NCBI GenBank assembly: GCA_951406725.2
Contig: OX597817.1
Span: 175,336,001-175,400,000, forward strand
DNA length: 64,000 nucleotides
DNA from: Octopus vulgaris
Lineage: Eukaryota
Direction of reading: 5' to 3'
Positions 41,051 through 63,215 of this stretch are shown in pieces (the stretch's first letter is position 1; each line of letters starts with the position of its first letter). Under the pieces are notes generated by a model. That model saw nothing but the letters and a program-made list of their open reading frames with translations. It was not told the DNA's origin and made no database searches. A program made the position numbers and the translations under genes.

Positions 41051-44000
41051 TAGTAGCTTTTTTTTTTTTTTAAGGTGATCTAGTAACCTCTTCCATTGAA
41101 GTTTTCCTGGCGTGCGGTTGAATCTTTAATGAAGTCTACCATATTTGGAATAGAGGAGGAAGGATTGATAGATGATTCGATCGAACTGTAGGAACAAGTA
41201 GGAAAAAATAACGAGTAAATCGAGCCGGAAACGAGCTTCGATTATGTGGGACGACCGTTAATACGAATCAATTTAAGAGTCTATAAACAGTTGTATCTTA
41301 GTAGGACGAAGTGGAGGCTTTCTTAATCGTTCTGACGCCTGAATTGTTCACAGACACATTTGGAATCTGACATGGCGAATTACATTGATGCGGAATACAT
41401 GAAAACAGAAGGTGGTCAGCGTTGAGATATGCTTTCCTCAAATTCTTGTAGGTGGGTTGCTTTTGTTTTTATCCTTTATATATATACACTTATTTATTTG
41501 TGTAAATTTCAAAAAATAATTATTATATCCCGATATATTGATTGTAGAACCCTACACGCGTCTTTAAATAACAACGAATATACAAATCCATATAAATTTA
41601 TAACCTTTTTGTAGCACGTTGATGTATATACGAACAAGCACTGATGGGGAAATAAATGAAATTGCTCGTAAATTTTCGTTTGTTTGACTTTCTTATAATA
41701 ATCCGACGGTAAACATTTTTGAATTGCTTTGTCGTTAAACTAACCATAATTCTGGCAAACTCGTCAGTTTCGTTTCATTTTGGCGGAATTTGTTACCTTT
41801 TTCTTGGATTTAAACATTTAAAAAAAGAACATGGCATAGCAAATGGGTGGCTTTTGGAAGATTCCCGGCGGAAAGGATTTCGCCACAGCCATCTCTCACT
41901 ATTCTCGCTCGGAACTCAACATGTAGCCGTAACGGCGATAGCAACAACAACAACATGCTACACAAAGAAAACAACCTGACAAAGACCACTTCAGCACGTG
42001 GAAATAAAGGCAACAACATAACCAGTATTAGCTATAGCAGTAGTAGCGACAACAACAACAATAACAACGGCAACGCAAGCAAAAGAACAGACGACCGCAG
42101 TGATAGCACCCCTATTGCCACACACCCTGTACCATTACCAGTTTAATAAATGACGGAAACGGCAACAACAACAATGTCGACGATTGCCGTTACGTTCTGA
42201 GTTCAAATTCCGACTTTACCTTTCATCCTTTCAGGGTCGATTAAATAAATACCAGTTACGCACTGGGGTCGATATAATCGACTTAATCCCTTTGTCTGTC
42301 CTTGTTTGTCCCTTGTGTGTTTAGCCCCTTGTGGGCAGTAAAGAAATATATATTGAAAGTAAGGAAAAAGAACTGTAACAGCAACGAAAACAACAGCACC
42401 TACAATAGTAGGACGAAAATAAGAAAATTAGTAGGAGTGGCTGAGTGGTAAGTAGCTTGCCTACCAACCACATGGTTCCGGGTTAAGTCCCACTGCGTGG
42501 CACCTTGGGCAAGTGTCTTCTACTATAGCCTCGGGCCGACCAAAGCCTTGTGAGTGGATTTGCAGTTCGGCAAAAGAGTGCGATAGAATAAATACTAGGC
42601 GTACAAAGAATAAGTCCTGGAGTCGATTTGTTCGACTAAAGGCGGTGCTCCAGCATGGCCGCAGTCAAATGACTGAAACAAGTAAAAGAGTATAAGAATA
42701 CGCCGATATGGCCTTTCTGTGTCCGCGTTTACAAGTGATCTGTTTCAACGGTTCCGCCTTCCGCAGTTGTGACTCGGGAACCAGCAAACACAGAGGTCAG
42801 CGGAGACAACCGCAACAGACTGAGTGCGCTACGAAACGGTCGCAAGAGGTGGACGTTTATTCTGATGACTGAGCAGATGTTGTTGTATATTGTTACGTCC
42901 AGCCTCTGGAAACGTATGAATCCGTTAAAGACAGCCCTAAGTTCTATTGATTAGGGCAAGTTCCTTGAAATATCCTTCCGATAGTCTTTTTCCTAACATT
43001 TTTCGAACAATTCTAACAATGAACGAGGATTAATGTATTGTTCAGAAGTCATTTGCTGACGTCGTCACTATTTTGAGTTGTTGAGGAATGAATTCCTCAA
43101 ACATCCTCCTAAATTATCTTTTAGATGTTTTGTTGTGTATTCTCTCATCTTACTTCTGTTTACATTTATAAAGTTGAAGTTGATAGAATTTGTTTTTAGA
43201 TACTTGACTGTTTTTTATCGTTTCTCATGGTATTTTGGTGTGTTTACAGCCAACTTTTAACACAGCAGTTGTGCCAGGGGTTGACTAATATGCGAGCTTT
43301 CTAGAGTTCCGTCTACTTTTCTCACTTTTTTTTTTGTTTTGTAGCGGGACAAGTCATTTGCGTCTTTTCTTTTAGCTGTTTTGATGACAACTTTTGCTAA
43401 ACTTCGGTTTGCTCCGCCATGTTATATGACATATAATTCAAGGATGAAGATAAATGTCTTATTGATACATGGGTGTGCACTTGTGCTGATATTGAGATGG
43501 GAGGAGTCTTTTCTACTCTATTCTTTTCTACTCAAGGCACAAGGCCCGAAATTTTGGAGGCGGGGGCCAGTCGATTAGATCGACCACAGTACGCAACTGG
43601 CACTTCGTTTATCGACCCCGAAAGGATGAAAGGCAAAGTCGACCTCGGCAGAATTTGAACTCAGAACGTTAAGACAGACGAAATACAGCTAAGCATTTCT
43701 TTTCTGTTCTAGGCACAAGGCCAGAAATTTTGGGGGAAGAGGCTAGTCGATTAGGTCGACCACAGAACGCAACTGGTACTTAATTTATCGACCCCGAAAG
43801 GATGAAAGGCAAAGTCGACCTCGGCGGAATTTGAACCCAGAACATAAAGACAGACGAAATACTGCTAAGCATTTCGCCCGGCGTGTTAACGTTTTTGCCA
43901 GTTCGTTATTGCTACAGTTCTTGCTATTGTTCTTTCCGTTGGTATTGCTGTGCTCGTGGTACTAGAGCAAACTTTTCAGTCTCTTTGCCTGAGAAATTTG

Positions 44001-44527
44001 CCTTTCATCCTTTCAGAGCCGATAAAATGAGTACCAGTTGAAGACTGGGGTCGATTTAATCGACTAGCCCCCTTCCCCGAGCTTGTTGGCCTTGTACCAA
44101 CATTTGAAATCAATATTTCTAACAACTCTAAGGCAGTGAGCTGGTAGAATCGTTACCACGTCGGGCAAAACGCTTAGAGCATTGGGGGTCGATGTGAGTG
44201 ACTTACCTCCTTCTCGAAATTGCTGGCTTCGTGCCAAAATTTGAAACCATTATTATTACTGTTGTGTCCTGAGCGGAGAGCTTGCAGAATAGTTAGAGCA
44301 TCTGACAAAATGCCTTGCCGTATTTCTTCCTGCATCATACAATCTGAGTTTAATTCCAACCGAAAGTTGTGCACTGGGACGATGATATAGATTAATAACT
44401 TCACCTCAAGACTCCTGGTCTTGGGTTAAATGAGAAACAACTATTACCGCTGTTTTTAAAAAGCATAATATGTACTGTATGTATATATTTTCATCCACGC
44501 TTTATTAACTATAGCAAAATTAAAGGC

Positions 44528-44847
44528 GGGAGGCGCAATGGCCCAGTGGTTAGGAGAGCGGACTCGCGGTCGGAGGATCGCGGTTTCGATTCCCAGACCG
44601 GGCGTTGTGTGTGTTTATCGAGCGAAAACACGTAAAGCTCCACGAGGCTCCGGCAGGGGGTGGTGATGACCCCTTTTGTACTCTTTCGCCCCAACTTTCT
44701 CTCACTCTCTCTTCCTGTTTCATGAGCAACGCTGCGATGGACGTGCATCCCGTCCAGCTGGGGGGAACACATACGCCACAGAAACCGGGAAAGCAGGCCC
44801 ATGAGCCTGGCTAGGCTTAAAAAGGGCGCATAAATAAAATAAAAAAC
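44528..44847 (+). mobile_element. tRNA-derived SINE family C copy with 10-bp TSD
   Basis: TGGCCCAGTGGTTAGG A-box, GTTTCGATTCCC B-box, A-rich tail; AATTAAAGGC at 44518-44527 and 44848-44857. Confidence 0.88.
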
Positions 44848-45336
44848 AATTAAAGGCACTAGTAGATTTAGATCCTTCTTATCGAATAACTTATTCTTAC
44901 TGCCATTGCCTCGCTCTTAGGTCGGTATCTCTCGAAGATAACCGCGAATGTGCTTGAAGCCATTCTGATTTTAAAAATAAAAACATGCATTTCAACTTAG
45001 GAAAAAATTGCTAAACATTTGACACTCGGTGTAAGGCGTTGTTATATAAAGCATAAATAAAATCATGTTTAGAAGCAGTTAGTGACTTTTTCCTCAAAAT
45101 GATCGATATTAAGTAAACAAACATGCACCCAAATGGGCGGAAACCGGGAATTTTGACAATAAATATATAAGTAAATAAAATAAAATAAAAATATATTATG
45201 ACGTTTATGTCAGCATGAGTTTTCCGCAGGGTTCTTGAAGCATGATCAGTAAGCAAGTGTCACCTTAGTCTGCTGGCTGTGGACAGCTGACAATTTCCAT
45301 CATACCCGGCAAAATAAAACTGAGAATTTTCCTGAC

Positions 45337-45419
<83 letters not shown>

Positions 45420-45420
45420 T

Positions 45421-45820
45421 TAAACAACTGAGCATGTCCCTTAGTGGCTGACGATATGTGCATCTCTGATCACGAGCAGAAGTAGTGGAAGAGCATCATA
45501 GCCATGTGTTGAGAGGGATTCTTTGGGGTTTGAATAATTCACCTATGGAAACATGGGTGGTTCTTTCAACATCCTTAAATAACCCTTATTCAGGGACCTT
45601 TTGAGCGGGATGGGCTACTCAACCTGAAGAAAATTCTAACTGGGCCCCACCTGCAAGGTCATGTGCTGTTTATCTTGATATGAGATCACCATGTCGCGCA
45701 CATATGGTTGTGATGCATGTGCCTGGTGTACCCTTATCAGACGGGTAGTCATGATGAGTATATTGGGCTTCGTATATTTTACCCCAGTGTCACTTTGATG
45801 GCATGACTGCTCTCTCACTC
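45421..45820 (+). mobile_element. Second copy of the (TAA)n-embedded non-coding repeat
   Basis: Reverse complement of about 18882-19270; (TAA)n on both sides. Confidence 0.65.
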
Positions 45821-45859
<39 letters not shown>

Positions 45860-45884
45860 GATGATGATGATGATGATGATGACG

Positions 45885-45972
<88 letters not shown>

Positions 45973-45998
45973 TGATGAGGATGATGATGATGATGATG

Positions 45999-46063
<65 letters not shown>

Positions 46064-46254
46064 TGATAATAATAATAATAATAATTAAAAAAAAAATTTT
46101 TTTTAGACATTCACTAGTACAACACTGAATACAAAACCAAATATATGGCACACTAGGCATAACAACAACATGAACTTCCAACCTGTTGTCTCTTGAGGTC
46201 TCTGGGTGAGACTTGGAGCCAACTTGTACAAATATAAAGCAAAAGTCAAACATG

Positions 46255-46330
<76 letters not shown>

Positions 46331-46435
46331 AATAATAATAATAATAATAACAACAAGAACAACAACAACAACAACAACAACAATAACAATAATAATAATA
46401 ATAATAACAACAACAACAACAACAACAACAACAAT

Positions 46436-46524
<89 letters not shown>
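45821..46524. repeat. Compound (TAA)n/(TGA)n/(CAA)n array with a ~150-bp insert at 46110-46256 (possible LINE 3' UTR)
   Basis: Repeats directly visible; identity of the insert is tentative. Confidence 0.85.
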
Positions 46525-46527
<3 letters not shown>

Positions 46528-46901
46528 CTTTTTTCTATAATACGTACAAGGTTTAGAGAAGGGCTAGATGATTGCATCGACTCCAGTACTCGATTGGTGC
46601 TTTATTTTATCGACCACGAAACGATGAAAGTAGATCTGAGCAGAATCTGAACTCAACGCAAAGATTCGGACGAAATACTTCGAACTATTCTGGCCGGATG
46701 AAGATGTTAATGGGGACAACAACAACAACAACAACAACAACAAAAACAACAAAAACAACAACAACAGCAGCAGTCGTCCAAGAATTTGGACCTGGAGATC
46801 ACCATTTCCAGCGACCAAAGTTTTTTTTCCCTCAGAGTCTGGGGTCTCCCGTCCCTAAGCCCTAGACAATCACCTAATCACCCTTACCCATCTTGTTGCT
46901 T

Positions 46902-46938
<37 letters not shown>

Positions 46939-47262
46939 GCAGCAGATTCCGCATGGATGGTTGTTAACGTAATTATAATATTCAAAATGATTTCAAAAAT
47001 CATCAAAATGAAAACGAAATTTAACAGGAAAACGAAGAAAGTGTTGTTTTATGAGCTGCAGTGTATAACCACGCATATTTTGTGTACTACATGTGATTAT
47101 CACATAAACTATATTGTTGAAATAACACACATATGTACATAGAATGAGGTTAACGTGGAAGACAAACAAAGCAATGGCACAAACTGTTGAATACAAACAA
47201 AACAACAGGAAAGGAATGGCACAGTAAATAAGTACAACTGATACGCAGTTTGCTATTTGTGC

Positions 47263-47770: not shown

Positions 47771-48854
47771 TCAGGTCATCCTATAAGTTCTGTCCGAATT
47801 TTGAATAAAGAAAACAAGTGATCAAATGTTATATTTAATTGAAATTTAATCATCATTGCACCTTCTCTGATTATCTATGACTTTCTTCCATCTATTTACA
47901 AGCATTTTAATCCCATAAATGTAAAACTCTTTTGGTTTCAAAGCGAAGAACTCTGAAATGTAAGTTTCGACCTCCTCCTGGCTTACGAAAGTTATGTCCC
48001 CCAAATGATTCTGTAAACTACGAAACAAATGGTAGTATGAAGGAGCAAGGTCGGGAGAATAAGGTGGATGAGGAATTTTTCCCAACCAAGCTCTTCGATC
48101 TTCTGTGATGTGATCATTGCAGTGTGGGGTCGCGCATTGTCCTGGTAAAAAATCACTCCTTTTCGATTCACTAAAGCGGGTCTTTTTTTCTTCAAAGCTT
48201 GGTCCAAACGCTCTAATTGCTGATAGTAGATTTGAGCATTGATTGTTGCATTAGGTGGTAACAATTAAAAGTGAATTACTCCTTTGCGATCCCACCAGAT
48301 AGAGGGAAGAACTTTTTTCCATGAAGTTCCCTTCTTGGTTGCGGTTGAGCTGTTTCCCTTTTACCAAGCCACTGTTTATGACGTTTAACATTTCGATAGA
48401 AGATCCACTTTTCGTCACCAGTCACAAGTCTATCGAAAAAGGGTGAAATGAGTTCGCGAGAATGGAGAGAAGAACAGATGTCAACTCGGGATTTGCGGTT
48501 GCTTTTGGACAATTCATGAGGCACCCATTTTCCAAGTTGTTGAAGATGACGATGAACAGTTGTATGGTTTGAACTAAGCTTTATTGCCAATTCTTCAACT
48601 GATAATGCAGGTTTTTCTTCAAGTAATGCCTCAAGGAGCTTATCATCAAACTCAACTGGACGTCCTGTTCGATCTTCATCTTCAAGGCTGAAATCTCCAC
48701 TAAAGAATTTTGCAAACTATCTTCTGCAAGTTCTTTCATTCAAACATTCTTTCCCATAAACTGAGTGTATGCTTCGAGTGGCTTCGGCTGTAGAGTTTCC
48801 TTTTTTGTACTCATAGAGCATTATGTGCCTCAAATGCTCTTTGGATACTTCCAT
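47771..48854 (-). mobile_element. Degenerate mariner (Mos1/SETMAR-like) transposon, frameshifted transposase; only one TIR recognised
   Basis: MEVSKEHLRHIMLYEY start at 48854; WVPHEL, VTGDEKW, QDNARPH, HPPYSPDLAPS motifs in different frames; TA+TCAGGTCATCCTATAAGTTCTGTCCG at 47769. Confidence 0.9.
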
Positions 48855-49104
48855 GTTAGAAAGGGTTTTAATCAAAGAAATTTTGATTCTATTATTCTGT
48901 AAAATAATATTTAATTAGTTTAAATGTAGACAAATGCATAAAAATAATTTTTAATTCCATTAGACATAATAAAACACTATTTACCTACTATACAATGAAA
49001 TGAAAACGTCTCAACAAAATCCAGAGCATACAAAACATGTAACATCCCACAAAAGAAGAACAGCAACACAACTGAGATGTTCACATCTGCGAACTAAAAC
49101 AAAG

Positions 49105-49381
49105 TGTGGTGTGGTGATGAGGGAGTGTGACAGAGAGGGAGGGAGCGGAAGTGGGTCTTGCAGGTCTCGCAGGGCGCATGCGCCGGCGGAAGCGGAAGTC
49201 AGCGACAGAACGCACGTGCGGCATCGACCAGGGCAGTCAGACTCGAGAACGACGCCAAGACGACAAGACGCTAGCAAGTTGGCTCAAGGCGAATCCGGCT
49301 TCATCTCTACAGGTAAGACCAAATTACACTTCTAATTCTTTTTCTTGTTCTGTTACGCTCCTTTTCACCACACGTATCACA
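49105..49381 (+). repeat. 5' LTR (277 bp)
   Basis: Starts TGTGGTGTGG, ends GTATCACA; matches 53089-53365 except T49343 vs C53327. Confidence 0.97.
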
Positions 49382-49393
49382 AGCTATTTCGGC
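49382..49393 (+). promoter_or_regulatory. Non-canonical primer-binding site AGCTATTTCGGC, complementary to nt 1-12 of tRNA-Phe(GAA)
   Basis: Abuts the LTR's terminal CA; reverse complement GCCGAAATAGCT is the 5' end of vertebrate/Drosophila tRNA-Phe as I recall it; no TGG-type PBS present. Confidence 0.8.
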
Positions 49394-49435
49394 AAAAATA
49401 ATCACTCGGTTTCGTGAAAATAAAAAATAAAAATT

Positions 49436-50191
49436 ATGCAGACTGCTATGATTTCACGCGACCCTATAACACCGTTTTGCGGCGACACCGACGTGGTCGC
49501 TTGGTTGAGGAGGGTGAAGTTGGTGGCGAAGCTACACGGCATAGCTGACCTGGCTAGTTTTATGCCGTTGTATTTGGATGGCCCGGCGTTGGCGTTATAT
49601 CTGGAGATGGAGGAAGCGGACCAACGCAGCGCGGACAAGGTGGAGATCCGACTTATGGAGGCCTTCGCGGAAGGAATGTTCGAAGCGTACACTCGACTGG
49701 GTAGGATGAGGTGGACAGGACAGCAGGTGGACGTGTTCGCCGGCGAGCTTAGAAGGTTGGCAAAACTTGCGGGATATGAGGGAGAGTCGCTAGAACGCAC
49801 GGTCAGGTTAGCGTTCGTGACCGGCTTTCCCGACATCATGTCGGTCGAGCTACAGAAGCTCCCGAACGTGCGTTCGATGCCGATGGCCGAGATTATATCG
49901 CGGGCACGTGTACTGGTGTCGTGCAGCAGGTCGACGTCGGTAGCAGCGACTGCAACGTCGAAAAGTGGCCCAGCTAGGAGCAACGGAGAGGGGCTGGGGA
50001 AAGAACGCGTGCGGTCGTTTAAGGGACAGTGTTTCCGGTGCCAGGGCCCACACATGGTCCGTGACTGCGCGTCGCCCAAGCCCGAGGTGATTTGCTACCG
50101 GTGCCGAGAGCCGGGGCATGTGGCCAGCGAGTGTCTGCGGGGAAACGGACCGCGGGTGACTACTGCGCCGGTAGTTGTCCCTTTGGATTAG
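49436..50191 (+). CDS. gag: Gag (251 aa) with two C-terminal zinc knuckles
   Basis: CFRCQGPHMVRDC and CYRCREPGHVASEC; ATG 54 nt after the 5' LTR. Confidence 0.92.
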   Translation: MQTAMISRDPITPFCGDTDVVAWLRRVKLVAKLHGIADLASFMPLYLDGPALALYLEMEEADQRSADKVEIRLMEAFAEGMFEAYTRLGRMRWTGQQVDVFAGELRRLAKLAGYEGESLERTVRLAFVTGFPDIMSVELQKLPNVRSMPMAEIISRARVLVSCSRSTSVAATATSKSGPARSNGEGLGKERVRSFKGQCFRCQGPHMVRDCASPKPEVICYRCREPGHVASECLRGNGPRVTTAPVVVPLD

Positions 50192-53052
50192 TAGCGGCGC
50201 GTTTCTCATCGTTACCTGTGGTCGACATTCTGGTGAAGGGGAAGATGTCGCGAGCCCTGGTGGACACGGGCTGTACGACGACCCTGATGACCACAGAAGT
50301 GGCAGAGACGTGGAGTGGAGGAAGCAGTGTCAGGGCAGTCGACGGAAGAGAAGTGCACTGCGAAGGGGTTACGGATGCGCAGATCGTGGTGCAGGGACTG
50401 CAGCTGACGTTGCGAGCGATTGTGGTCGGTCACTTGGTGGACGAGATCGACGTGGTGATGGGGATGGATGCGATCACCCGTCTGGGAGGTGTTACCGTCA
50501 ACGAGACTGGCGTAACGTTTGGGCTAGCAGGGAAGCCGTGTAGGGCGACACCACGCACCGACAACGACCGTGAGGAAATGGATGCGGCGCACACCATTGA
50601 AGACCAGGATTTTCGGGCTGTCTTTGATGGCGAGAGGTGGACAGTGGAGTGGCACTGGAAGGGAGAGCCCCCGATGTTAAAGAACAAAGTGGGCTGCTAT
50701 CAGCATACTCTAAAAGGAGATGCCAGAAGTGAGTTCGAGGGGGAGGTGGAGCGGTGGATTAAGGAGGGCATACTGATCCCCTGGGAAAAAGAAGAGAGCG
50801 GAGTCCTGCCACTGATGGCGGTGATACAGCCCACAAAGCGTAAGGTCAGGCCAGTGCTCGACTTCCGAGAGCTGAATGACCACGTGTCGTGTCATACAGG
50901 CGGCGAGGCCACGGATGTCTGCGGAGACACCTTGCGAGAGTGGAGGCAGACGGCGGGGGCCTCCACGATTGTCGATTTGAAGTCGGCATACCTTCAGGTT
51001 CATGTGGCTGAGAAACTATGGAGGTACCAGCTCGTCAGGTATAGGGGCCGGACGTACTGTCTGACCAGGTTGGGATTCGGGCTGAATTCAGCTCCGAAGA
51101 TTATGGCAACAATTCTCAAGGCCGTCCTGGGGAAGGTGGACAGAGTAAAAAGGGCCACCAATTCATACATCGACGACATTCTGGTGGATGAAACCGTGAT
51201 ACCAGCAACGGAGGTCATAGGCCACCTGAAGAGTTTTGGACTGATCGCCAAGCCGCCAGAGGCTATGGAGGGAGGTGCTGCACTGGGCCTCAAGCTATGG
51301 AGAGACAAAGCCGGCGCCTTGGTGTTCCGGCGAGGGAATGAGATCCCTGAACTGGGCGCCAGCATGAGTAGACGGGAGCTGTTCTCTGTGTGTGGGAAGC
51401 TGGTGGGACACTACCCGATTGCAGGCTGGCTCCGGACAGCATGCAGCTTCATCAAGAGACGAGCCGAAGGAGTGAAGTGGAATGACAAAGTGGGGGAGAG
51501 GACGATCGACATGATGCAGGAAGTCCTGGTCAGAGTAAGAGCAGAGGACCCGGTGAGGGGCAGCTGGTACGTTCCCAAATCAAAGAGCGGGATCGTATGG
51601 TGTGACGCCAGTAGCATCGCAATAGGGATTGTCTTGGAAGTGGGAGGTGTCACGGTGGAAGATGCAGCCTGGCTCAGGAAGATGGATGACTGCAGTCACA
51701 TCAACGTGGCGGAGTTGGAAGCCGTGCTGGAGGGGGTGAACCTAGCCTTGAAGTGGGGGTTGCACACCATAGAAATCAGGACTGATTCGGCCACTGTACT
51801 TGGTTGGGCGACGGCAGTCATCACCGATGAGCGGAGGGTGCGGACCAAAGGGGCTGCAGAGATGCTGGTAAAGCGTCGATTGGGGATACTGCGTGAACTG
51901 ACCACTGAGTTCAATCTGAAGCTGAGCGTGATCTTTGTGCCTTCCGAGAAGAACAGGGCAGACGTCCTGACCAGGGTTAAGCGAGCCTGGTTGCAAGTGC
52001 CAGAGGACGCGAAGCAGGATGTAGCTGCAGTATGCCATCTGAGCGACTCGGAGTTGCGGAGACTGCACACCATGCATCACATGGGTGTGGACAGGACGTT
52101 GTTCCTGGCCAGAAAAGTCGACTCCGACGTAACAAGACAGAGCGTGCGGAGAGTGGTTAGCAGTTGCGACAGGTGCCAGTCCATCGACCCTGCTCCGGTC
52201 GTGCATGAAGCGGGAAGTATTCCAGTGGACCAGGACTGGAGACGACTGGCGGTGGACATAACACACTACCGGCAGGGGACATACCTCTCAATGGTTGACT
52301 GCGGACCGGGGCGGTTCGCCATATGGAGGGAGATGAGGTCAGGAACCGCAGAAGAAATTGCGAAAGTGCTGAACGAGATATTCCTGGAACGAGGCCCCGT
52401 GGATGAACTGCTTCTGGACAACGGCACTGCATTTCGCTCGGAGGCGCTGAGAGAAATGCTTGATGAGTGGAAGGTCAACCGCTTCTTCAGGGCGGCATAC
52501 CGGCCAAGTGGAAACGGGGTGGTGGAAAGGCATCATCGTACCATCAAGGCCATGGCTGAGAGGGGTCACATTTCACCAGTCGAGGCCGTGTTTTGGTACA
52601 ACATGTCGCCCAGATCAGGACAGGCCGAGGAGTCGGTGCCACACAGGGCAATATTCAGGTACGAGTGGAGGCATCCGTGTACTACATCAATGCGACCCGG
52701 GGCAGAGGAAGAGCACGCCTTCGTGCAGGTCGGGGAGGAAGTCTGGGTGAAACCCCCGAACGCACGGTGTACATCGCAATGGGGAAAGGGGACAATAACC
52801 TCCGTAAATTCAAAGAACAACATCTCGGTAGATGGTATGCCACGCCACGTTTTGGACATACGGAGGATTGTCCATGCCCCGGAGGATGGGACAAGCAACA
52901 GTGGGCAAGACGATAACAACAGACAGGATGACGAGGTCGGCAGCAACACGCCAGAAACAAGTCCTAGGGTCGCACTGCGACCACAGAGGGAGCGGCACCC
53001 TCCTCCCTGGTTGGCTGACTACGAAACCAGTTTCAGGTGCGGGAGCGAGTGA
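50092..53052 (+). CDS. pol: Pol polyprotein (protease, RT, RNase H, integrase), likely made as Gag-Pol by -1 frameshift near 50140-50146
   Basis: ALVDTGC (PR); DLKSAYLQV, RLGFGLNSAP, YIDD (RT); WCDAS/AELEA/RTDS/NRADVLTR (RNase H); H..H..CDRC, AVDITH, LLDNG, GVVERHHRTIK (IN); open frame has no ATG at its start and is -1 relative to gag. Confidence 0.95.
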   Translation: MLPVPRAGACGQRVSAGKRTAGDYCAGSCPFGLVAARFSSLPVVDILVKGKMSRALVDTGCTTTLMTTEVAETWSGGSSVRAVDGREVHCEGVTDAQIVVQGLQLTLRAIVVGHLVDEIDVVMGMDAITRLGGVTVNETGVTFGLAGKPCRATPRTDNDREEMDAAHTIEDQDFRAVFDGERWTVEWHWKGEPPMLKNKVGCYQHTLKGDARSEFEGEVERWIKEGILIPWEKEESGVLPLMAVIQPTKRKVRPVLDFRELNDHVSCHTGGEATDVCGDTLREWRQTAGASTIVDLKSAYLQVHVAEKLWRYQLVRYRGRTYCLTRLGFGLNSAPKIMATILKAVLGKVDRVKRATNSYIDDILVDETVIPATEVIGHLKSFGLIAKPPEAMEGGAALGLKLWRDKAGALVFRRGNEIPELGASMSRRELFSVCGKLVGHYPIAGWLRTACSFIKRRAEGVKWNDKVGERTIDMMQEVLVRVRAEDPVRGSWYVPKSKSGIVWCDASSIAIGIVLEVGGVTVEDAAWLRKMDDCSHINVAELEAVLEGVNLALKWGLHTIEIRTDSATVLGWATAVITDERRVRTKGAAEMLVKRRLGILRELTTEFNLKLSVIFVPSEKNRADVLTRVKRAWLQVPEDAKQDVAAVCHLSDSELRRLHTMHHMGVDRTLFLARKVDSDVTRQSVRRVVSSCDRCQSIDPAPVVHEAGSIPVDQDWRRLAVDITHYRQGTYLSMVDCGPGRFAIWREMRSGTAEEIAKVLNEIFLERGPVDELLLDNGTAFRSEALREMLDEWKVNRFFRAAYRPSGNGVVERHHRTIKAMAERGHISPVEAVFWYNMSPRSGQAEESVPHRAIFRYEWRHPCTTSMRPGAEEEHAFVQVGEEVWVKPPNARCTSQWGKGTITSVNSKNNISVDGMPRHVLDIRRIVHAPEDGTSNSGQDDNNRQDDEVGSNTPETSPRVALRPQRERHPPPWLADYETSFRCGSE
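50140..50200 (+). promoter_or_regulatory. -1 programmed ribosomal frameshift signal: G GGA AAC heptamer plus H-type pseudoknot
   Basis: Heptamer 50140-50146 in gag frame; 7-nt spacer; stem 1 GGGTGACTAC (50154-63)/GTAGTTGTCCC (50171-81); stem 2 GCGCCG (50165-70)/CGGCGC (50195-200). Confidence 0.82.
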
Positions 53053-53079
53053 GGAAGCCGGTTCAGTGATCTATAGATC

Positions 53080-53088
53080 AGGGGGGCG
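53080..53088 (+). promoter_or_regulatory. Short polypurine tract AGGGGGGCG
   Basis: G-run directly 5' of the 3' LTR's TG. Confidence 0.75.
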
Positions 53089-53365
53089 TGTGGTGTGGTG
53101 ATGAGGGAGTGTGACAGAGAGGGAGGGAGCGGAAGTGGGTCTTGCAGGTCTCGCAGGGCGCATGCGCCGGCGGAAGCGGAAGTCAGCGACAGAACGCACG
53201 TGCGGCATCGACCAGGGCAGTCAGACTCGAGAACGACGCCAAGACGACAAGACGCTAGCAAGTTGGCTCAAGGCGAATCCGGCTTCATCTCTACAGGTAA
53301 GACCAAATTACACTTCTAATTCTTTTCCTTGTTCTGTTACGCTCCTTTTCACCACACGTATCACA
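53089..53365 (+). repeat. 3' LTR (277 bp)
   Basis: Direct repeat of 49105-49381 followed by TSD CAAAG. Confidence 0.97.
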
Positions 53366-56300
53366 CAAAGCAAAAATGATGTAAAGCCGCTCACGCAATA
53401 AACAAATTAAGTATTACAGCAAATCAAAAGCACAAAATGATGGATGAAGACTTTAGGGAGCCTCATGGAAACACTGAGCAAAATACACAACAAATGTACA
53501 TCGTCGATCCCATATAATAACACACAGACTAAAAGCCCACCACGTAAAAGACCAATCAGAGTTAACATTAAGAAGTATCTAAGTGAAAAAATAACGAAAA
53601 CAAAAATGAACACTAGAAAATCAATGAAAAGGGTTCAGTGTAAACACCTTCCAAAACTACATTAAATAAATGCATAACATTACAAAGAAATAAATCTGCG
53701 AAGAATAAACAAACATAGTGGACCCTATGGAGATCGAAACGTTTCTTGAAATGTTCAAATCGTTCATGAAAAGCAGCAAACGCTTGGATATGTTTCACAG
53801 TTTCTTCTTTCTTATCCTTAAATAAACTTAACTTTTGCTGACTGGTGCGGTGACATATCATCCACCCAGAAACTTAAACGTTTTCTCAATATTTTCTACG
53901 TTTTTTTACAGTGTCTAGTTAAAGGCTTTAATTTTTCAGGATAATTTTATTTTGCCAGATTGTTTCATTGTAATTTTCCCGTGATTTCTCAAAATTTTTC
54001 TTTACTCCTTTTCTTCTCCTGCACATTTTATAGTTAATAGTTTGTTAAGCTCTCGTCACGTAAACTTTAGATTAACATTGCACTATGGAATCAAAAGGGT
54101 TTTAAAATTACTTTTTTTTAAAAATTGCATGTGGTAAAATGTTGTTCGAGGAAATTAGGTGTGACTGAACGCTTTCTTTTGTACATGCTGAGAAAGCAAC
54201 GAGGTAGATCCTTATAAGGGTTTTGTATATAAGCAGGAAATTCCAAGGGTGGCTATGCAACGACAATGGCGTTTCGTTTTGAGATTTTATCTGTTAAAAC
54301 GCTGCTAATTTAAGCGTCACGGTAACGAAGTTTTGTTCACAGATGTAGCATAAAATGAGAAATTAGTGTATAAAGAAAAAATAAATTACAAATAGGAAAC
54401 TAAATTTATTCTTATTAAAGATTTAGAAAAAATTATAAAAATAATGACAAACAAAAAAGTGAAAATATATTGATAACAAAAAGGAAGAGAAACTTCACTC
54501 TTTGGCTGATTTTCTACAAGACTCGACAGAGAAGTCAGAGTGGAAGTCAACAATGGTTAATAATGGTTCAAAAGCACTTGGCAAAAAGGAGAAGGTTTGA
54601 TTTTAGCTGCACTGGACTAACCCTCTGCTACAATTATCTACAGAATATAATAAAGTTATTAGAGTCATGGCATTTCGTCCGTCTGTACGCTCTGAGATCG
54701 ACTTTAAGTTTCATCCTTTTGGGGCTGATAAAATAAGTACCAGAAGAGCATTGGGGTCGATATGATTGACATACCTCCTCCTCGAAATTGCTGGCCTCGT
54801 GTGGAGACAATACAACTAATGAGACGGTTAGTCACATTATCTTCGATTGCCCAATCCTTGTTTAATCCAAATGTAGACACAGGCATGAATGAAATAGCAA
54901 CTGCCTTCTGAGAAATATGAAAGTACTTCGACATGTAAATGGGCGTGGTATAGACATGCACCAAACAAGGTATATGACAACAATTACTTGCGTATTCAAA
55001 TTGATAAGGTGGTCGTCGAGACAAAGTCCAGCTATAATAATCAAAGACTGGAAGGAAATTACAAGAATGTTGATGTGTATTACGTTCCCTTGAGATGGAA
55101 AGAAAGGTGAGAAATTGTCAAACTACAAAAATCTCATAACTGAAATAAATAGGATGTGGAATATAAAGGTAATTAGTACCAGTAATAATTGGAGTATTAG
55201 GTTTGATAAATATGAGCGAACACATAATCCATACCAAGAGATAACATCTCAGATAATCCCCACCAATGCGCAAATATAGAGCTAATGAGTACAACTTACA
55301 TCTTTCTTTAAGTTCAGTAACACAACTTCTACACAAGACACAATAACCACCCAATAAAATTACACTACAAACACTCCTTCAAAGACGATACTCGACACTA
55401 CTATCTACCGATAGATGTTATCAACAACTCACAACTTGCATTCTACACACCTGCAACAAACCACACACTACATAGTTGGCAAAATCACTGCCTGTCACTG
55501 AAACACATAACCCCAATTACACGCGATATACAAAACATTCACCATCCAACAAAATATCGCAACTCACACTGTGTATATTTTACAGAACAAACGAAATATC
55601 GATTTCAAATTTTGGCAAAAAGCCAGCAAATTTGGTGGGAGGGGCTAAGTCGATTACGTCAACCCCAGTGTTCAACTGGTACTTATTTCATCGCCTCCAA
55701 AGGATGAAAGGCAAAGTTAATTTCGGCAGAATTTTAACCCAGAACGTAAAAACAGACGAAATGTCGGTAAAAATTTTGCCCGGCGTGCTAACGATTCTAC
55801 CAGCTCACTGCTTTCGAACAAACGAAATATTCTTTTCTACTCAAGGCACAAGGCCCAAAATTTTGGAGATGGGGGGGCAGTCGATTAGATCGACCTCAGT
55901 ACGCAACTGGTACTTAATTTATCGACCCCGAAAGGATGAAAGGTAAAGTCGACCTCGGCAGAGTTTGAACTCAGACGAAATACCACTAAGCATTTCGCCC
56001 GGCGTGCTAACGTTTCTGCCAGATCACTGCCTTGAACAAACGAAATATTGTACAAGGAACAAAGCCAAGAATTTATGAAAAAGGAACAGTCAATTACACC
56101 AACCCCGCTACTTGACGAGTACTCGTCAGTCTCGGAATACTCACCCACCTTTCGATAAACAAACTGGAAAGCAGCATATCCCTCTCTGCTGTCAATCTCC
56201 TATTCAAATAGTCTTTAAAGAAATCCATACAAATTTGGCCGGAGAGCAAAATACCTGTCTTCAAATCTTTTAACCTTGTTCCCACACGTCCCCACGCCGT

Positions 56301-56584
56301 AGGCATTAGGCAAAAGAAGACTAGCCACCTTTCTCAGCAAAAGTAAGGTAGTCGATAAATTTTCACTGCAGGTTCTGTTGGTCGATAGATCCATTCTACA
56401 ACAGTTATTCACAATAAGCCTCCGTGTCAACAATGCAGGGACAGTGACCGAGAGTGTGCAGGTCGGTTTCGTCAAATTATGTACATCTGGGGCAATTTTT
56501 GGTTGTCAGTACTTCCTTGTTTGTAGAGCCTGTCTCGAACAAACAATTTTCTCTTTTTATATCACTGCCACGTCAAGCACTTTA

Positions 56585-56887
56585 TTTGTTCCTTCTCGAG
56601 CCACGCCTGGCTCATAAAGGCCGGTTTCCTGGTTTCCTTGGCGTATACGTTCCCCACCTGGACTGGACGCCGGTCCGTCGCAGGTGAGCTGCAAGATGCA
56701 GGAGGAAAGAGTGAGAGAAAGTTGTGGCGAAAGAGTCAGTAGAAGTTCGCCATTACCTGCTGCCGGAGTTGCGTGGGGCTTAGGTGTTTCGCTCATAAAC
56801 ACACACATCGCCCGGACTGAGATTCGAACCCGCGATCCCTCGACCGCGAGTCCGCTGCTCTAACCACTAGGCCATGTGCCTCCACAC
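56585..56887 (-). mobile_element. tRNA-derived SINE family C with 12-bp TSD; related copies ~1550-1750(+), 7475-7755(-), 21905-22248(-), 24400-24735(+)
   Basis: GGAGGCACATGGCCTAGTGGTTAGAGC A-box and GGGTTCGAATCTC B-box; TCAAGCACTTTA at 56573-56584 and 56888-56899. Confidence 0.88.
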
Positions 56888-56987
56888 TCAAGCACTTTAG
56901 GATATTAAAAAAAAAATCCTTGACATTAAAACATCATCAAGAAAAGATTATTAAATGTTGTTCATTCTGTCCCCGTCGACTCTCAGA

Positions 56988-57052
56988 ATGTATATATGTA
57001 TGTTTGTATGTATGTATGTATGTATGTATGTATGTATGTATGTATGTATGTA

Positions 57053-57083
<31 letters not shown>

Positions 57084-57086
57084 ATG

Positions 57087-57120
<34 letters not shown>

Positions 57121-57126
57121 TGTATG

Positions 57127-57157
<31 letters not shown>

Positions 57158-57240
57158 ATATGTATGTATGTATGTATAAATGTATGTATGTATGTATGTA
57201 TGTATGTATGTATGTATGTATGTGTGTATGTATGTATGTA

Positions 57241-57271
<31 letters not shown>

Positions 57272-57316
57272 TTGTATGTATGTATGTATGTATGTATGTA
57301 TGTATATATGTATGTA

Positions 57317-57355
<39 letters not shown>

Positions 57356-57520
57356 ATGTATGTGTGTGTGTGTGTGTATATATGTATGCATGTATGTATG
57401 CATGTATGTATGTATGTATGTGTGTGTGTATGTATGTACGTATGTATGCATGTATGTATGTATAAATGTATGTATGTATGTATGTATGTGTGTATGTATG
57501 TATGTGTGTGTGTGTGTGTA

Positions 57521-57611
<91 letters not shown>

Positions 57612-58016
57612 ATGTATGTATGTATGTGTGTATGTATGTATGTATGTATGTATGTATGTATGTATGTATGTATGTATGTATGTATGTATGTATGTATGTA
57701 TGTGTATGTATGTATGTATGTATGTATGTATGTATGTATGTATGTATGTATGTATGTATGTATGTATGTATGTATGTATGTATGTATGTATGTGTGTATG
57801 TATGTATGTATGTATGTATGTACGTATGTATGTATGTATGTATGTATAAATGTATGTATGTATGTATGTATGTATGTATGTATGTATGTATGTATGTGTG
57901 TATGTATGTATGTATGTATGTACGTACGTATGTATGTATGTATGTATGTATGTGTGTATGTATGTATGTATGTATGTATGTATGTATGTATGTATGTGTG
58001 TGTGTGTGTGTGTATG
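56988..58016. repeat. ~1-kb compound (TATG)n/(TG)n microsatellite
   Basis: Directly visible; produces the spurious MYVC/HTYI ORFs. Confidence 0.97.
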
Positions 58017-59863
58017 AAACACGCATTAAAATTTATCGAGAGATGTATTTCAGCAAGTCATGCAAGTATTTTGTAGTCACTATACAAAATGGCAAATGTT
58101 TTATTCCGAAGAATGCCAAGGGAGATGCACTGACATATCCATTCCACCACATGGGCTCGTTCCTGTGGATGGCTACCTCTATTGCGATCAGAGTGAGTAC
58201 GAAAGGGAATCGGGCTCCCAGGATGTCTGGCGTTTCCATCACTAAATGTTCGCAATGGAACCTGACGAAGAGCAACAGGTGCTTGGTCAGCTTGCGATGT
58301 TCAGCTTTTTGAGTAACAAAACCTGGGTCCGTCTCCGATTTCTGCAGATTGTTGCTGGAGAAAGAATCAATGCAGATCGCGTCCCAAATTAAAGATTTGG
58401 AGCCTCAGAATGGCTCATTACAATTTAGCACCAGAATTAGACTCAGCTCTTCGCCATCAATAGGTAGTCATGGTTACAATTTAGCGCCAACAGTTGAATG
58501 GTTGAAGCGCTTGAAAAGATTGAGAAGTGAACTCTACTTCTCCGGTCAAGCTCTCTTCAACTACTTCAGTTCCTCTTCAAACGGGAAGTGCTACCCTGTA
58601 ACAAATGTGATAAAATGTGAGTGCAGTTTACGAAACTGGGACGTATGAAAGGAACGATTCCTAAACTGTGTCTAGTGTTTGTAGCCAAAAGAGAGTAACT
58701 CCCCAGAGTGCTAAACGGGTGGTATCTTGGATCATTCATAGGTGTAAGTTTCTATTCTTGTATGTACATTTGTTTGTTTTATATTGTCATATAGCTTTCA
58801 TGTTTTTTTTTGCGTTAATGTATATGTATAAGTCAACATATTGGTTTGCAATAATTTCTTGTAAAATGTTTTGTATGCATGTGTGAGTGACTTTTGGACA
58901 CTATAGAAAGAATCTGGCGGAATTGCTAGAACATCCAAGAAAATGCTTTGCGATATGTTCTGGTTTCTTACGTTCTTGATTCAAATCACGTCGACTTTGG
59001 TTTCATATAACCAGGATCGATAAAATAAAGTATTGGTCAATTATTTGTATCGATATAATCGATTTCCCCCTTATCCTCCTTATCTCTGACCTTGTTTTCG
59101 TAACTGTAATTATTATTATAGATTGAAATAAGGCGGTGAGCTTAATGGCATTTCGTCAGTCCTTACGTTCTGAGTTTAAAATCCGCCGAGATTGACCTTA
59201 CCTTTTATCCTTTCGGAGTCGATTAAATAAGTACCAGTTGAATACTGGGATCGATGCAATCGATTTAGCCCCTCCCCCGCAATTGTTGGTCTTGTACCAA
59301 AACTTGAAATCAGTATTATATATTGCAAAAGAGCGATCAATAGATAGAATCGCGACGGCATTGAATAAAATGCTTTGCAATATTTGTCTCGGCTCTTTAT
59401 GTTTTGAGTTCAAATTCGCCGAGGTCAGTTTAGCCTTTCATCTATTCGGTATCGATTAAATAAAGTTAACTGTCAAGTACTCGGCTAATTCTGATCCTTA
59501 AAATATTTGGCTTTGTGCCTGTGTATGAAATTATTATTTATAGATTGGAAATTTTCTTAATCATGCCACAACAGTAATTACTGCAGATATTTAATGCAAT
59601 TAAGATACTCTACAAGTTTCATAATAATTTAGAAAATTGATACTGCAATCCTGCCAGTAAAGTAGTTACAGATTTATGAAATATAGTAAACGCCCGTATA
59701 TAGTTACAGTTGATTGAGTAAAATGCAGTGGTGCCTCCCTACTCAGAATTACTTTAAAGTTTAGGTGCAAATTCTAGAAGCTAAGAAATTTCATGATCTG
59801 CAACAGTATCAGATCACTCGTCTGTGTTAAATACTACTACTACTAATAATGATGATGATGATG

Positions 59864-59962
<99 letters not shown>

Positions 59963-59964
59963 TT

Positions 59965-61005
59965 CCTTCTTCTATAGGCACAAAACCTGAAATTGGGGCG
60001 GAAGAGGCTAGAGGGTTACATCGATCTCACTACTTGACTATTATTTTATTGACGCCGAAAAGATGAAAGGCAAAGTCGACCTCGGTGAAATTTGAATTCA
60101 GAACGTAAAACCTGAAGAAATGTCGCTAAGCATTTTGTCCGGTGTGCTTAACGATCCTACCAGTTCGCTGCCTTAACAGTAAGAATAATGGTTTCAAATT
60201 TTAGCAAAGGCCAGCAATTTCAGAGGAGCGGGTAAGTTGATTACATCGACCACCAGTGCTCAACTGGTACTTGTTTTATCGATCCCGAAAAGGTTAATGG
60301 CAAAGTCGTCTACGGCGGAATGTGAACTCAGAACGTAAAGGCTCTGCCAGTTCGCAGTCTTAATAATAATATTTCTGTCTACTATAGGCACAAGGCCTGA
60401 AATTTGGTGGGGAGCGGTTAGACGGTGACATCGACCCCAGTACTTGATTGGTACTTATTTTATTGACTCTGGAAGGATGAAAGGCAAAGTCGACCACGGC
60501 GGAATTTGAACTCAGTATGTAAAGACAGGCGAAGTGCTACTAAGCAGTTTGTCCGGCGCGCTAACAATGCTGCCAGCTCACCGCCTTATTAACGATATTT
60601 CTTTCTACTATAGGCACAAAGCCAGAAATTTAGGGGCAGCTAGAATAGTCGATTACATCTACCCAAGTGTTCAACTGGTACTTTATTTTATCGACCATGA
60701 GAAGATGAATGGCAATGTCGACCTCACCAGGATTTCAGCTCAGAATGTAAAGACGGAGGAAAATGCCGCTAAGCAGTTTGACGTGCTAACGATTCTGATA
60801 GGTCATTGCCTTAATTAATAATCCTTTTTATTATAAGCAGAAGGTCGGAAATTTAGTGGAAAGAGGCCAGTCGATTACATGGTACTTATTTTATTGGCCC
60901 AGGAAGGATGAAAGGCAAAGACGACCTCGGATGAATTTAAATTCGGACTGTAAAAAAAGGAGGAAAACCGATCGGCGAGATAACGATTCTGCAGGCTCGC
61001 CACTT
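59965..61005 (-). mobile_element. Head-to-tail cluster of about five diverged family B SINEs
   Basis: GATGAAAGGCAAAGTCGACC-like blocks at about 60062, 60295, 60476, 60703 and 60907, separated by short TAA runs. Confidence 0.8.
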
Positions 61006-61016
61006 TAACATTTTTA

Positions 61017-61582
61017 TTGGGTTGTCTGGAAAGTTCGTGCTGATTTATAGTAGCTTACCTTTCGACTTATTTTAGAACATGGTTGAGTCCATAAAATAGG
61101 ATTTGACTACATATCTATTCAGAGCACAGTTTAAACTATCTTTTCATGGAAGAAAGTTTATGTTCCTATAAACTGTGTTAATTCTGTAACCCTTTAAAAT
61201 GGAAGATAAGAAAGTTAATTTCCAGCACTTGATGCTTTGGGAACCAGACAAAAATTGCTGCAGCTCGGCTGGGATGTATTACCCCACCCTCCATATTCAC
61301 CAGATATTGCTCCTTCGGATTTCCACTTATTCAGGTTTCTGCAGAATAGTCTTAATAGTAAAAATTTCAATTCCTTGGATGACGTAAAAAGATACCTTGA
61401 TGAATGCTTTGTCATGAAACCACCTCAGTTCTGGGAAGAGGGTATTTTCAAGTTAAAGGAAAGATGGAGACACATTGTGCAACAAAATGGTTCATATTTG
61501 GTTGATTAAAAATGTAATGGCAAGTATTTATTGACCTTTTTCTTTCCTTTAAAAGTCAGCACGAACTTTCCGGACAATCCAA
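61017..61582 (+). mobile_element. Internally deleted mariner (566 bp) with both TIRs and TA TSD
   Basis: TA-TTGGGTTGTCTGGAAAGTTCGTGCTGA ... TCAGCACGAACTTTCCGGACAATCCAA-TA; N-terminal MEDKKVNFQHLMLWE joined out of frame to C-terminal HPPYSPDIAPSDFHLF. Confidence 0.92.
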
Positions 61583-62520
61583 TACTTTGTCGAAATAGCC
61601 GATTGATCAATCATATTTATATCTACGAGAGGCGGTTCTCAAATGATACAGCAAGGTACAATGGCATGCCACAAGATGTAGATTAGTGGTATACAGAAAT
61701 AACTGATTCTATGTTTTTCTTTTAATTTATGTAATTGTTTCTTGTGTGAAAAGAAGAAAGAGAAAAGTAGAATCAGAAATTCTAAATATAATGTCTTGAT
61801 AATTACGATCAATGATTTATGAACCTTAAATTAGTTTTTACTAACAGAAACACTGTCCGTTTTTCCACTAGTTTATTTAACACACGCACACACGCACGTG
61901 TTCGCACACACACACATAATGGCACGTACACACATACTTACACATGTATATATAGAGAATTACAATAACTCTATATATACATACATACACGCACATACAT
62001 TTGAGTATGCATGTGTGTGTGTATACATGTATATTATATGATAATAATAATAAATAAATGTATATATATATGCGTGTGTGTGTGTGTGTGCGTGCGTGCG
62101 TGTGCATATATGGGTTTAGGACGTCAACTGTGCAAACAACATGAAATACGTAGACAAATGAGTTAAATATGTAAACGAGAGAAAAAATGAAAAATTGGAC
62201 AAATAAACACAGAGAAACGACCCTTCATCAGTTGTCGGCTGTCTATCTACTCGTTTCGAGCATTCTATGACAATGTGACTTTCCAAAAGCAGTTGCTCCC
62301 ATAAATTCTAAAATGAAATTTAGGATTTATGGAGGGTCAAAGTTGAGAACAGAAATAGAACATTGGAGACATACGAGGAAACTGAGCGAAAAGAAACATG
62401 GAGGGTCGTTAGACCAGAAAGAGAAGAAAAATAGTGAACGCTGGGAGAAATATTTTCTTTAAAAAGAGAAAACTGCTTTGAGCGTCCGTGCAGGTAAAGA
62501 ACGATGGTCACATGAGGAAA

Positions 62521-62618
<98 letters not shown>

Positions 62619-63215
62619 TAGAAATGGTAAAACAACAAAAGAATGAAAGTGACCTCGATATTATGTAAATAAAGGAATTTATCTGTAAATATAATTTGTG
62701 ACAATTATTCGGTAGCCATTAATTGTCACATATTATATTTACACACACATACATATATATATATACAATTTAAAAATAGGATAAAATCATTATAAGAAAT
62801 TATCAAGCAGTTAGCGTGAAAATCCTCATAAGGAAAAATTTATTAATTTTTCCCTTTAAATATATTTATTGATATTAAGGACATTACTATACATAAATGC
62901 CTCACGCTAGGAGGGACTCTTAAAGCAAAAACTACCATAATAAACACATTGTACCGAACGCGAGGGAATGCAACTCTCGAAGCGAGCTTTTTAAAAACAG
63001 ATTCAGCTGCAGATCATATGATTTTATAATTAGTACACAAAATGCACTTTTTAATCGTCAGTGCATGCATAATCAAGAGACATAAAAATGAACAGAAAAT
63101 CAACATACTAGACGAACACCAAATGTATCCAGCATAGTACATAGAATTGTTCACACTTATATATCTATGTACACGTGTTTATTCAGAATAAAATTCAGCA
63201 CTGAATATGTTCCGG

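Follow-up and report, generated by a model that had tools for sequence, protein, structure and literature searches.

A 12-nt site complementary to tRNA 5' ends follows the 5' LTR in a distinct clade of LTR retrotransposons

A young LTR retrotransposon of 4.26 kb was found in Octopus vulgaris at 49105-53365 (+) of the window, by which we mean the whole 64,000-nt stretch of DNA that was analysed. Directly after its 5' LTR lies a 12-nt site that is complementary to the first 12 nucleotides of the host tRNA-Phe. As judged by sequence comparison, this feature is real, is clade-wide and co-varies with the 5' ends of tRNAs. We consider it very likely that the site binds tRNA nt 1-12. The site is not tied to tRNA-Phe; versions for tRNA-Lys and tRNA-Met exist. 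The element belongs to a distinct LTR retrotransposon clade that is marked by DUF7047 in pol and is possibly an unnamed deep LTR lineage. Its features are given below.

49100-49104, +, left target-site duplication, 5 bp (CAAAG), with identical bases at 53366-53370
49105-49381, +, 5' LTR, 277 bp (TG...CA), a direct repeat of 53089-53365 with its sole mismatch at 49343
49382-49393, +, predicted primer binding site, the exact complement of host tRNA-Phe(GAA) nt 1-12
49436-50191, +, gag ORF with zinc knuckles (from the ORF list; zf-CCHC E 1.2e-06)
50065-53052, +, pol ORF in the -1 frame, 995 aa stop to stop (from Pfam, motif positions and the RT/RNase H fold)
50140-50146, +, slippery heptamer G GGA AAC in the gag-pol overlap (from the sequence)
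53080-53088, +, polypurine tract AGGGGGG plus a 2-nt spacer ahead of the 3' LTR (from the sequence)
53089-53365, +, 3' LTR, 277 bp
53366-53370, +, right target-site duplication, 5 bp (CAAAG)

The 5' LTR starts at 49105, a small correction, and the G at 49104 is part of the target duplication. Since the 277-bp LTR pair has a single mismatch, the insertion is recent. The element has two features of Ty3/gypsy elements, namely TG...CA LTRs with a 4-6-bp target duplication and the order protease-RT-RNase H-DDE integrase. By Pfam, the domains of pol run from aspartyl protease through reverse transcriptase, DUF7047, RNase H and an integrase zinc finger to the DDE core. The RT motif YIDD is at 51166, and the RNase H motifs D-E-D-D, at about 51598, 51700, 51781 and 51952, look intact. 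The heptamer presumably directs a -1 frameshift from gag into pol. Within the LTR, a donor-like CAG/GTAAGAC (GT at 49313) is followed by CTAAT and a pyrimidine run, which extends to the AG with which the primer site begins (49310-49383). Splicing here would delete U5 and disrupt the primer site. The donor-like site is present in L046 and L047 and absent from the remaining families checked.

The 12-mer AGCTATTTCGGC occupies 49382-49393, flush with the terminal CA of the 5' LTR and without a TGG, as an earlier sequence-only reading of this DNA had described. The LTR edge was set independently of the 12-mer, by the LTR pair and the CAAAG duplication on both sides. That reading had taken the start of tRNA-Phe from vertebrates and Drosophila, and this start is present in the host. 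A 20-letter tRNA-Phe start pattern had 85 matches in the O. vulgaris genome (G000; 2.8 Gb, 227 contigs), compared to 0 for the reversed control. ARAGORN called tRNA-Phe(GAA) at 10 of 10 pattern loci examined, with the match beginning at nt 1. All 12 letters of the site pair with the tRNA, and the pairing is bounded, as had been claimed, by tRNA nt 1 on one side and the LTR edge on the other, with nt 13-15 unpaired. When tRNA-Phe (plus CCA) was compared to the whole element, the 12-mer was the longest complementary run. The next was 8 nt within gag, and nothing in the element pairs with the tRNA 3' end over more than 8 nt, this run too lying in gag. The predicted energy of the site/tRNA duplex is -20.7 kcal/mol, compared to about 9 kcal/mol for opening nt 1-12, the latter being a rough estimate because the folding model used does not yield a cloverleaf.

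Self-complementarity of the acceptor stem was rejected as the cause of the match, as it accounts for only 7 of the 12 letters; the sequence-only reading had also held it insufficient. A two-part site with extra boxes was likewise rejected, as there is no further complementary run longer than 8 nt. Elsewhere in the genome, at G000:C18:30147727-30157146, a tandem array with a 200-bp period has units that begin like tRNA-Phe (45 matches listed).

That reading called for conservation of the 12-mer in related elements, and the site is indeed kept while its flanks diverge. The O. vulgaris genome has 287 copies of CA plus the 12-mer, compared to 14 for the control. The 12-mer was kept in 29 of 30 O. 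vulgaris loci found by DNA similarity, which is the weakest of the conservation tests because these loci include the window and the query contained the site. With 20 O. vulgaris loci chosen by RT similarity alone (73-86% identity), it was exact in 15, had one or two changes in 3 and was not seen in 2. Several of these RT-chosen loci differ in LTR sequence (0.55-0.79 across 150 nt upstream), and their leaders are unrelated (0.42-0.55 across 40 nt downstream, as in distant metagenome loci). In contrast to the window clade, which has no TGG, the ordinary Ty3/gypsy elements of O. vulgaris used as a control carry a TGG 0-2 nt from the LTR in 12 of 12 loci. These control loci were picked by the ordinary gypsy RNase H family and represent about five families. 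An RT query from L096, the element with a tRNA-Met site, gave mostly already-known places among the 150 O. vulgaris matches scored (41-47%). At L041, L042, L043 and L045, copies of the second family adjoin or lie within a further RT-coding stretch from this clade; three of the four have identical flanks, which suggests nested or co-duplicated insertions.

More distant relatives were obtained from a metagenome scan of 52 loci with RTs 34-71% identical, 17 of which have no region upstream of gag, leaving 35. Each of the 35 has a site that reads A/C-GCTA-nnnn-GGC or is a degraded derivative of this form; 31 fit the full frame and the remaining four are degenerate. The 35 contain near-duplicates (L064-L066, L071/L072, L104/L106), so that about 31 are distinct. 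CA precedes the site in 31 of the 35, with GA or TA in the others, and a TGG follows the LTR in none of them, nor in the window. In the L063/L064 family the LTR end was also fixed independently: after 14 nt common to both, L063 continues into flank and L064 into the site. In all 27 relatives measured, an ATG is found no more than 22 nt from the site, although in L061 it is not the start of gag. At the 3' LTR edge of several relatives, as in the window, there is a G-run, then 1-2 nt, then TG. L064 is present in sequencing runs (18 rows, 7 studies). The LTR and site of L065 were compared to four runs, two of which do not cover the site; among 40 of the 86 differences none fell in the site, and we give this comparison no weight.

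Since the sites were first spotted with a pattern, the test was repeated blind to the motif, with windows placed by the gag match (L061 was given a 400-nt window). In this test, 23 of 33 segments came within two mismatches of nt 1-12 of an O. vulgaris tRNA, compared to 15 of 1210 control windows. The ten misses consist of eight in which the site was cut off or outside the window, L088 with three mismatches and the degenerate L105. In a register scan with four O. vulgaris tRNAs, a set without initiator tRNA-Met and tRNA-Ile, the nt 1-12 register collected 23 hits, the two overlapping registers 8 apiece and no other register more than 2. Information per position is 1.3-2.0 bits within the site, except at nt 5 (0.11), and 0.16 at the next base. 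Such a drop past the site edge is expected for a mature tRNA 5' end.

The variants of the site follow the starts of different tRNAs. The window's own 12-mer is also found in L061, L062 and L085, whose RTs are 50-62% identical. The L089 site is the exact complement of nt 1-12 of O. vulgaris tRNA-Lys(CTT). The L096 site is the exact complement of nt 1-12 of an intron-containing O. vulgaris tRNA-Met(CAT), with its first letter altered as tRNA nt 12 is. The sites of L068 and L095 match an O. vulgaris tRNA-Lys variant (L135), whose start we take to be the usual animal tRNA-Lys(UUU) start. The two commonest variants, with nine loci each, correspond to starts of tRNA-Phe(GAA) genes in 26 of 27 and 8 of 8 GTDB matches listed; these counts hold among the matches listed, and the scan pattern fixed much of the motif. 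Overall, the start of a tRNA verified by a tool equals 25 of the 35 metagenome sites, 6 are without a eukaryote-type partner and 4 are degenerate. Of the six, which fit the full frame, three (one family) match phage tRNA-Thr only, one matches only prokaryotic Thr/Asn genes and two match nothing. The partner tRNAs are O. vulgaris or GTDB genes and not genes from the metagenome elements' own hosts, and a match with the element's own host is limited to O. vulgaris. The co-variation that the sequence-only reading had proposed as a check thus stands insofar as sites track tRNA 5' ends, with an own-host match for O. vulgaris only. Its core proposal, that the 12-mer serves primer binding by a tRNA 5' end, came through every sequence test run, but a restriction to tRNA-Phe did not.

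All the variants pair A8/T9-type letters with U8 and A9, so tRNAs with G9 seem to be avoided. G9 of tRNA is often methylated. The RT tree has 43 rows (the window, 36 loci and 6 named proteins; three near-duplicates and five short-RT loci were left out). Site variants are scattered over it and close relatives alternate between both Phe forms, with support mostly low. This scatter fits repeated primer switching, as far as it can be read from the tree.

The tRNA searches gave several further observations. The GTDB tRNA-Phe matches listed are mostly from archaeal genomes, with few on eukaryotic-looking contigs. L174, L176 and L253 look like eukaryotic contigs in bacterial bins, with tRNA bodies at most two letters from the O. 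vulgaris gene. Other eukaryote-looking tRNA-Phe genes within GTDB bacterial bins (L148-L150, L155, L156, L195, L196; L181-L184; L146, L189) are likely host contamination, and some sit in 3.7-kb tandem repeats. A three-variant start pattern had 2 matches in O. vulgaris, one being a tRNA-Lys variant and the other no tRNA. Two of three O. vulgaris places that start like the partner of L068 and L095 were discarded because they are not tRNAs (L115/L137, L136). At L125-L132 in O. vulgaris, tRNA-Met(CAT) genes are interrupted after the anticodon by an intron of about 21-22 nt.

The clade itself is large. Of 8000 candidates, 836 are relatives of the window pol at E 1e-30, and 461 clusters (50% identity) match the clade RT-RNase H at E 1e-30 or better. 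Named relatives come from Argonauta, Aplysia, Plakobranchus, Oratosquilla, Petrolisthes and Macrosteles (molluscs, crustaceans, an insect), and the Argonauta protein is the nearest named protein to the window in the RT tree. Among 14 distant relatives scanned, DUF7047 is present in all 14 and an rve integrase in 12, as in the window pol, with an integrase zinc finger in one further. With Pfam, PF17917 was not found in the window pol or these 14, and a tyrosine recombinase domain is absent from the same set. The Pfam RVT_1 match of the window RT falls below the cut-off. A fold search with this RT gave nearly equal ranks to caulimoviruses, retroviruses and a mosquito To virus, at 13-19% identity, and its similarity to the 12 O. 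vulgaris gypsy loci over RT-RNase H is weak (best BLASTP E 3e-07, 22% identity). The clade shares with ordinary Ty3/gypsy elements (Metaviridae) TG...CA LTRs, a 5-bp target duplication, gag zinc knuckles, the order PR-RT-RH-IN and a polypurine tract, but it lacks Pfam RT_RNaseH and has DUF7047. The RT/RNase H motifs of the window look DIRS/VIPER-like; DIRS, Ngaro and VIPER, however, have a tyrosine recombinase, whereas the window clade has a DDE integrase. The ESM Atlas returned unnamed RT clusters only, the top one naming Euglenozoa on 3 records. Viral contigs held no relative of the clade and no match to the eukaryote-type tRNA-Phe variant pattern.

We propose that a host tRNA whose mature 5' end is of the GCC....UAGC type (mostly tRNA-Phe, but also Lys and a Met) would release this end from its acceptor and D stems, and that the end would form a 12-bp duplex with the site. 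The tRNA would be cut where the duplex ends on the LTR side or slightly inside that point (nt 12/13; possibly 10/11), and the short 5'-terminal piece, whose new 3'-OH faces U5, would prime reverse transcription. A primer needs a 3'-OH (or 2'-OH) at the U5 edge. Once the duplex has formed, tRNA nt 12 occupies this edge, and a cut or branch at that nucleotide is therefore required. It is probable that a cut tRNA piece is the primer. The element's RT/RNase H would be the most likely cutter, doing to a tRNA in trans what the Tf1 enzyme does to its own RNA. A cut made by the element is ranked first because of the Tf1 geometry, a site length that is constant within the clade, and D-E-D-D motifs that look intact; arguing by this analogy, we put the chance that the element's own enzyme makes the cut at about even. 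Since the clade RT shows no close relationship to Tf1-like or other gypsy RTs, the parallel with Tf1 concerns mechanism and not descent. Tf1 reportedly requires a larger RNA structure around its duplex; no U5-site stem was predicted for the window element. Ordinary gypsy loci of O. vulgaris mostly have matching spacers at both ends, whereas the window clade has 1-2 nt at the polypurine tract and none at the site. Because of this mismatch the true primer end may be nt 10. The primer may therefore end at nt 12 or nt 10, or two primer bases may stay on the DNA end. The complete proposal, in which a deep, barely described lineage has a fourth priming mode whose RT captures an intact tRNA 5' end, cuts after nt 12 and primes, is tentative, and we hold it with slightly more doubt than belief.

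The site evidence fits equally well with a short primer of host origin. A 5' tRNA fragment of greater length could anneal and be trimmed to the duplex end, or a tRNase Z-like endonuclease could read the 12-bp duplex as a mini pre-tRNA and cut the trailer; jointly, we regard these host routes as unlikely but worth serious attention. Short 5' tRNA fragments are usually at least 14 nt, which counts against a host-made primer. In PMC9141469, tRNase ZL is described as cytosolic among its locations and as cutting target RNA in micro-pre-tRNA-like complexes, with the cut after the discriminator when more than 11 bp are paired; the constant 12-bp length of the site suits that ruler. The same text reports severe inhibition by 5' leaders longer than 8 nt, and the element strand would be a long leader (PMC9141469). 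A cut by this enzyme would also leave nt 13 unpaired. If instead the tRNA stayed uncut, DNA synthesis could start from the 2'-OH of nt 12, as retron msDNA starts at an internal 2'-OH. No nuclease would be needed, the geometry is suitable and the RT is an unusual one, being 13-19% identical to the viral and solved RT structures listed. We know of no LTR element with 2'-OH priming, however, and a long tRNA tail would need clearing from U5. In addition, other fragment-primed elements use cut RNA (PMC6317226), and we find this route improbable.

A different role for the site would be to dock the tRNA for packaging, dimer formation or translational control, while the freed 3' CCA primes elsewhere. 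Such docking would agree with a release of the 3' acceptor strand on pairing of nt 1-12, with the nearby ATG of the relatives, and with Ty1 and Ty3, in which additional boxes pair with arms of the tRNA. Nevertheless, these LTR ends need a primer that ends at the U5 edge, exactly the position of the site, while the 8-nt run in gag is the best that the element offers a tRNA 3' end and a TGG site follows the LTR in 0 of 35 relatives. We consider docking very doubtful. The sequence-only reading had itself named a self-primer as what would speak against its claim. Self-priming, either of the Tf1 type or through an LTR splice junction, would make the tRNA match a coincidence. The window LTR does have the donor-like site and pyrimidine run, but the best self-complement has 6-9 of 12 Watson-Crick pairs in 32 elements, compared to shuffled means of 6.7-8.1, which is chance level (the L077 value is off by one base). 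The best value over GT/GC-AG joins was 7-10 of 12, and never 12, in the 31 elements with a possible join. Exact matches to three tRNA species also speak against coincidence, and we consider this explanation hardly credible.

Three primer types of LTR elements were recognised in a 2019 survey, namely whole tRNA, half tRNA and self-primer, with half-tRNA priming reported only in Ty1/copia lineages (PMC6317226). The half-tRNA Ty1/copia elements Osser, Bryco and Bianca use an internally cut 5' fragment of a host tRNA, as proposed for the window clade, and have no TGG site (PMC6317226). They bind tRNA-Met or tRNA-Ile at the anticodon-stem region and use roughly half a tRNA as primer, whereas the window clade matches nt 1-12 of several tRNAs; their integrase is upstream of RT, whereas that of the window pol is C-terminal (PR-RT-RH-IN). 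Copia and Ty5 are also half-tRNA-primed Ty1/copia elements. In Tf1, RNase H cuts between bases 11 and 12 of the RNA 5' end that is paired with the site (PMC7175516). Tf1, Tf2, Tj1 and the Tf1/sushi elements resemble the window clade in having a site flush with the LTR and a short duplex, predicted in the window clade, with an RNA 5' end (PMC7175516, PMC4600332). The primer is 11 nt in Tf1 and a proposed 12 nt here. The Tf1/sushi primer is the element's own transcript, in contrast to the host tRNA proposed to act in trans in the window clade, where self-complementarity is at chance, and the clade RT is not close to Tf1/sushi elements as far as tested. From its sequence, the clade site would work like a cross of half-tRNA priming and Tf1 self-priming while belonging to neither group. 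Priming by a cut tRNA fragment as such is already known.

Cigr-1 is similar in length to the window element. The Cigr-1 clade (Ciona) and MolGy/PolGy (molluscs, annelids) are short, gypsy-like and from the same host groups, a comparison made by description only (PMC6238403, PMC8556966). The main texts of these two papers do not mention primer sites (0 matches for PBS and tRNA), and PMC2774666 gave no matches for Cigr, PBS or tRNA. PMC11962134 was rejected as a precedent, as the 5' tRNA-Asp fragment described there binds near ordinary gypsy sites in Arabidopsis and does not prime. Ty1 and Ty3 are reported to pass on their site without copying it anew from the primer (PMC7472051), so we do not claim that the clade site is refreshed from the tRNA. 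The sequence-only reading had left its novelty to a literature check, and no description of a site for tRNA nt 1-12 was found in the literature searched, which covers few subscription journals. The variant 12-mers gave only unrelated matches in literature text. A prior mention in Repbase, GyDB or Dfam is possible, at a rather low chance.

Annotation targets tRNA 3' ends, using the last 12 nt (PMC13524379) or perfect 3' matches plus TGG (PMC6317226), and therefore the sites of this clade would score as "no PBS". If the proposal is true, a large clade would use a fourth LTR-element primer type, and an RT would have an RNA-guided tRNA-cutting activity that links self-priming with tRNA priming. 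Under the proposal one would expect an enzyme able to open a tRNA and cut within its D stem, a previously undescribed origin for very short 5' tRNA fragments, and elements controlled by fragments from the 5' instead of the 3' part of tRNAs. It also makes testable whether RNA-duplex cutting by RT is a general primer-making route or a Tf1 oddity.

Just to the left of the element, a broken transposase at 47846-48716 (-) has a helix-turn-helix and a weak Transposase_1 match, and we take it to be mariner-like. Long AAT, ATG, AAC and ATGT microsatellites lie in 42000-47200 and 54700-62700, together with several copies of short interspersed repeats.
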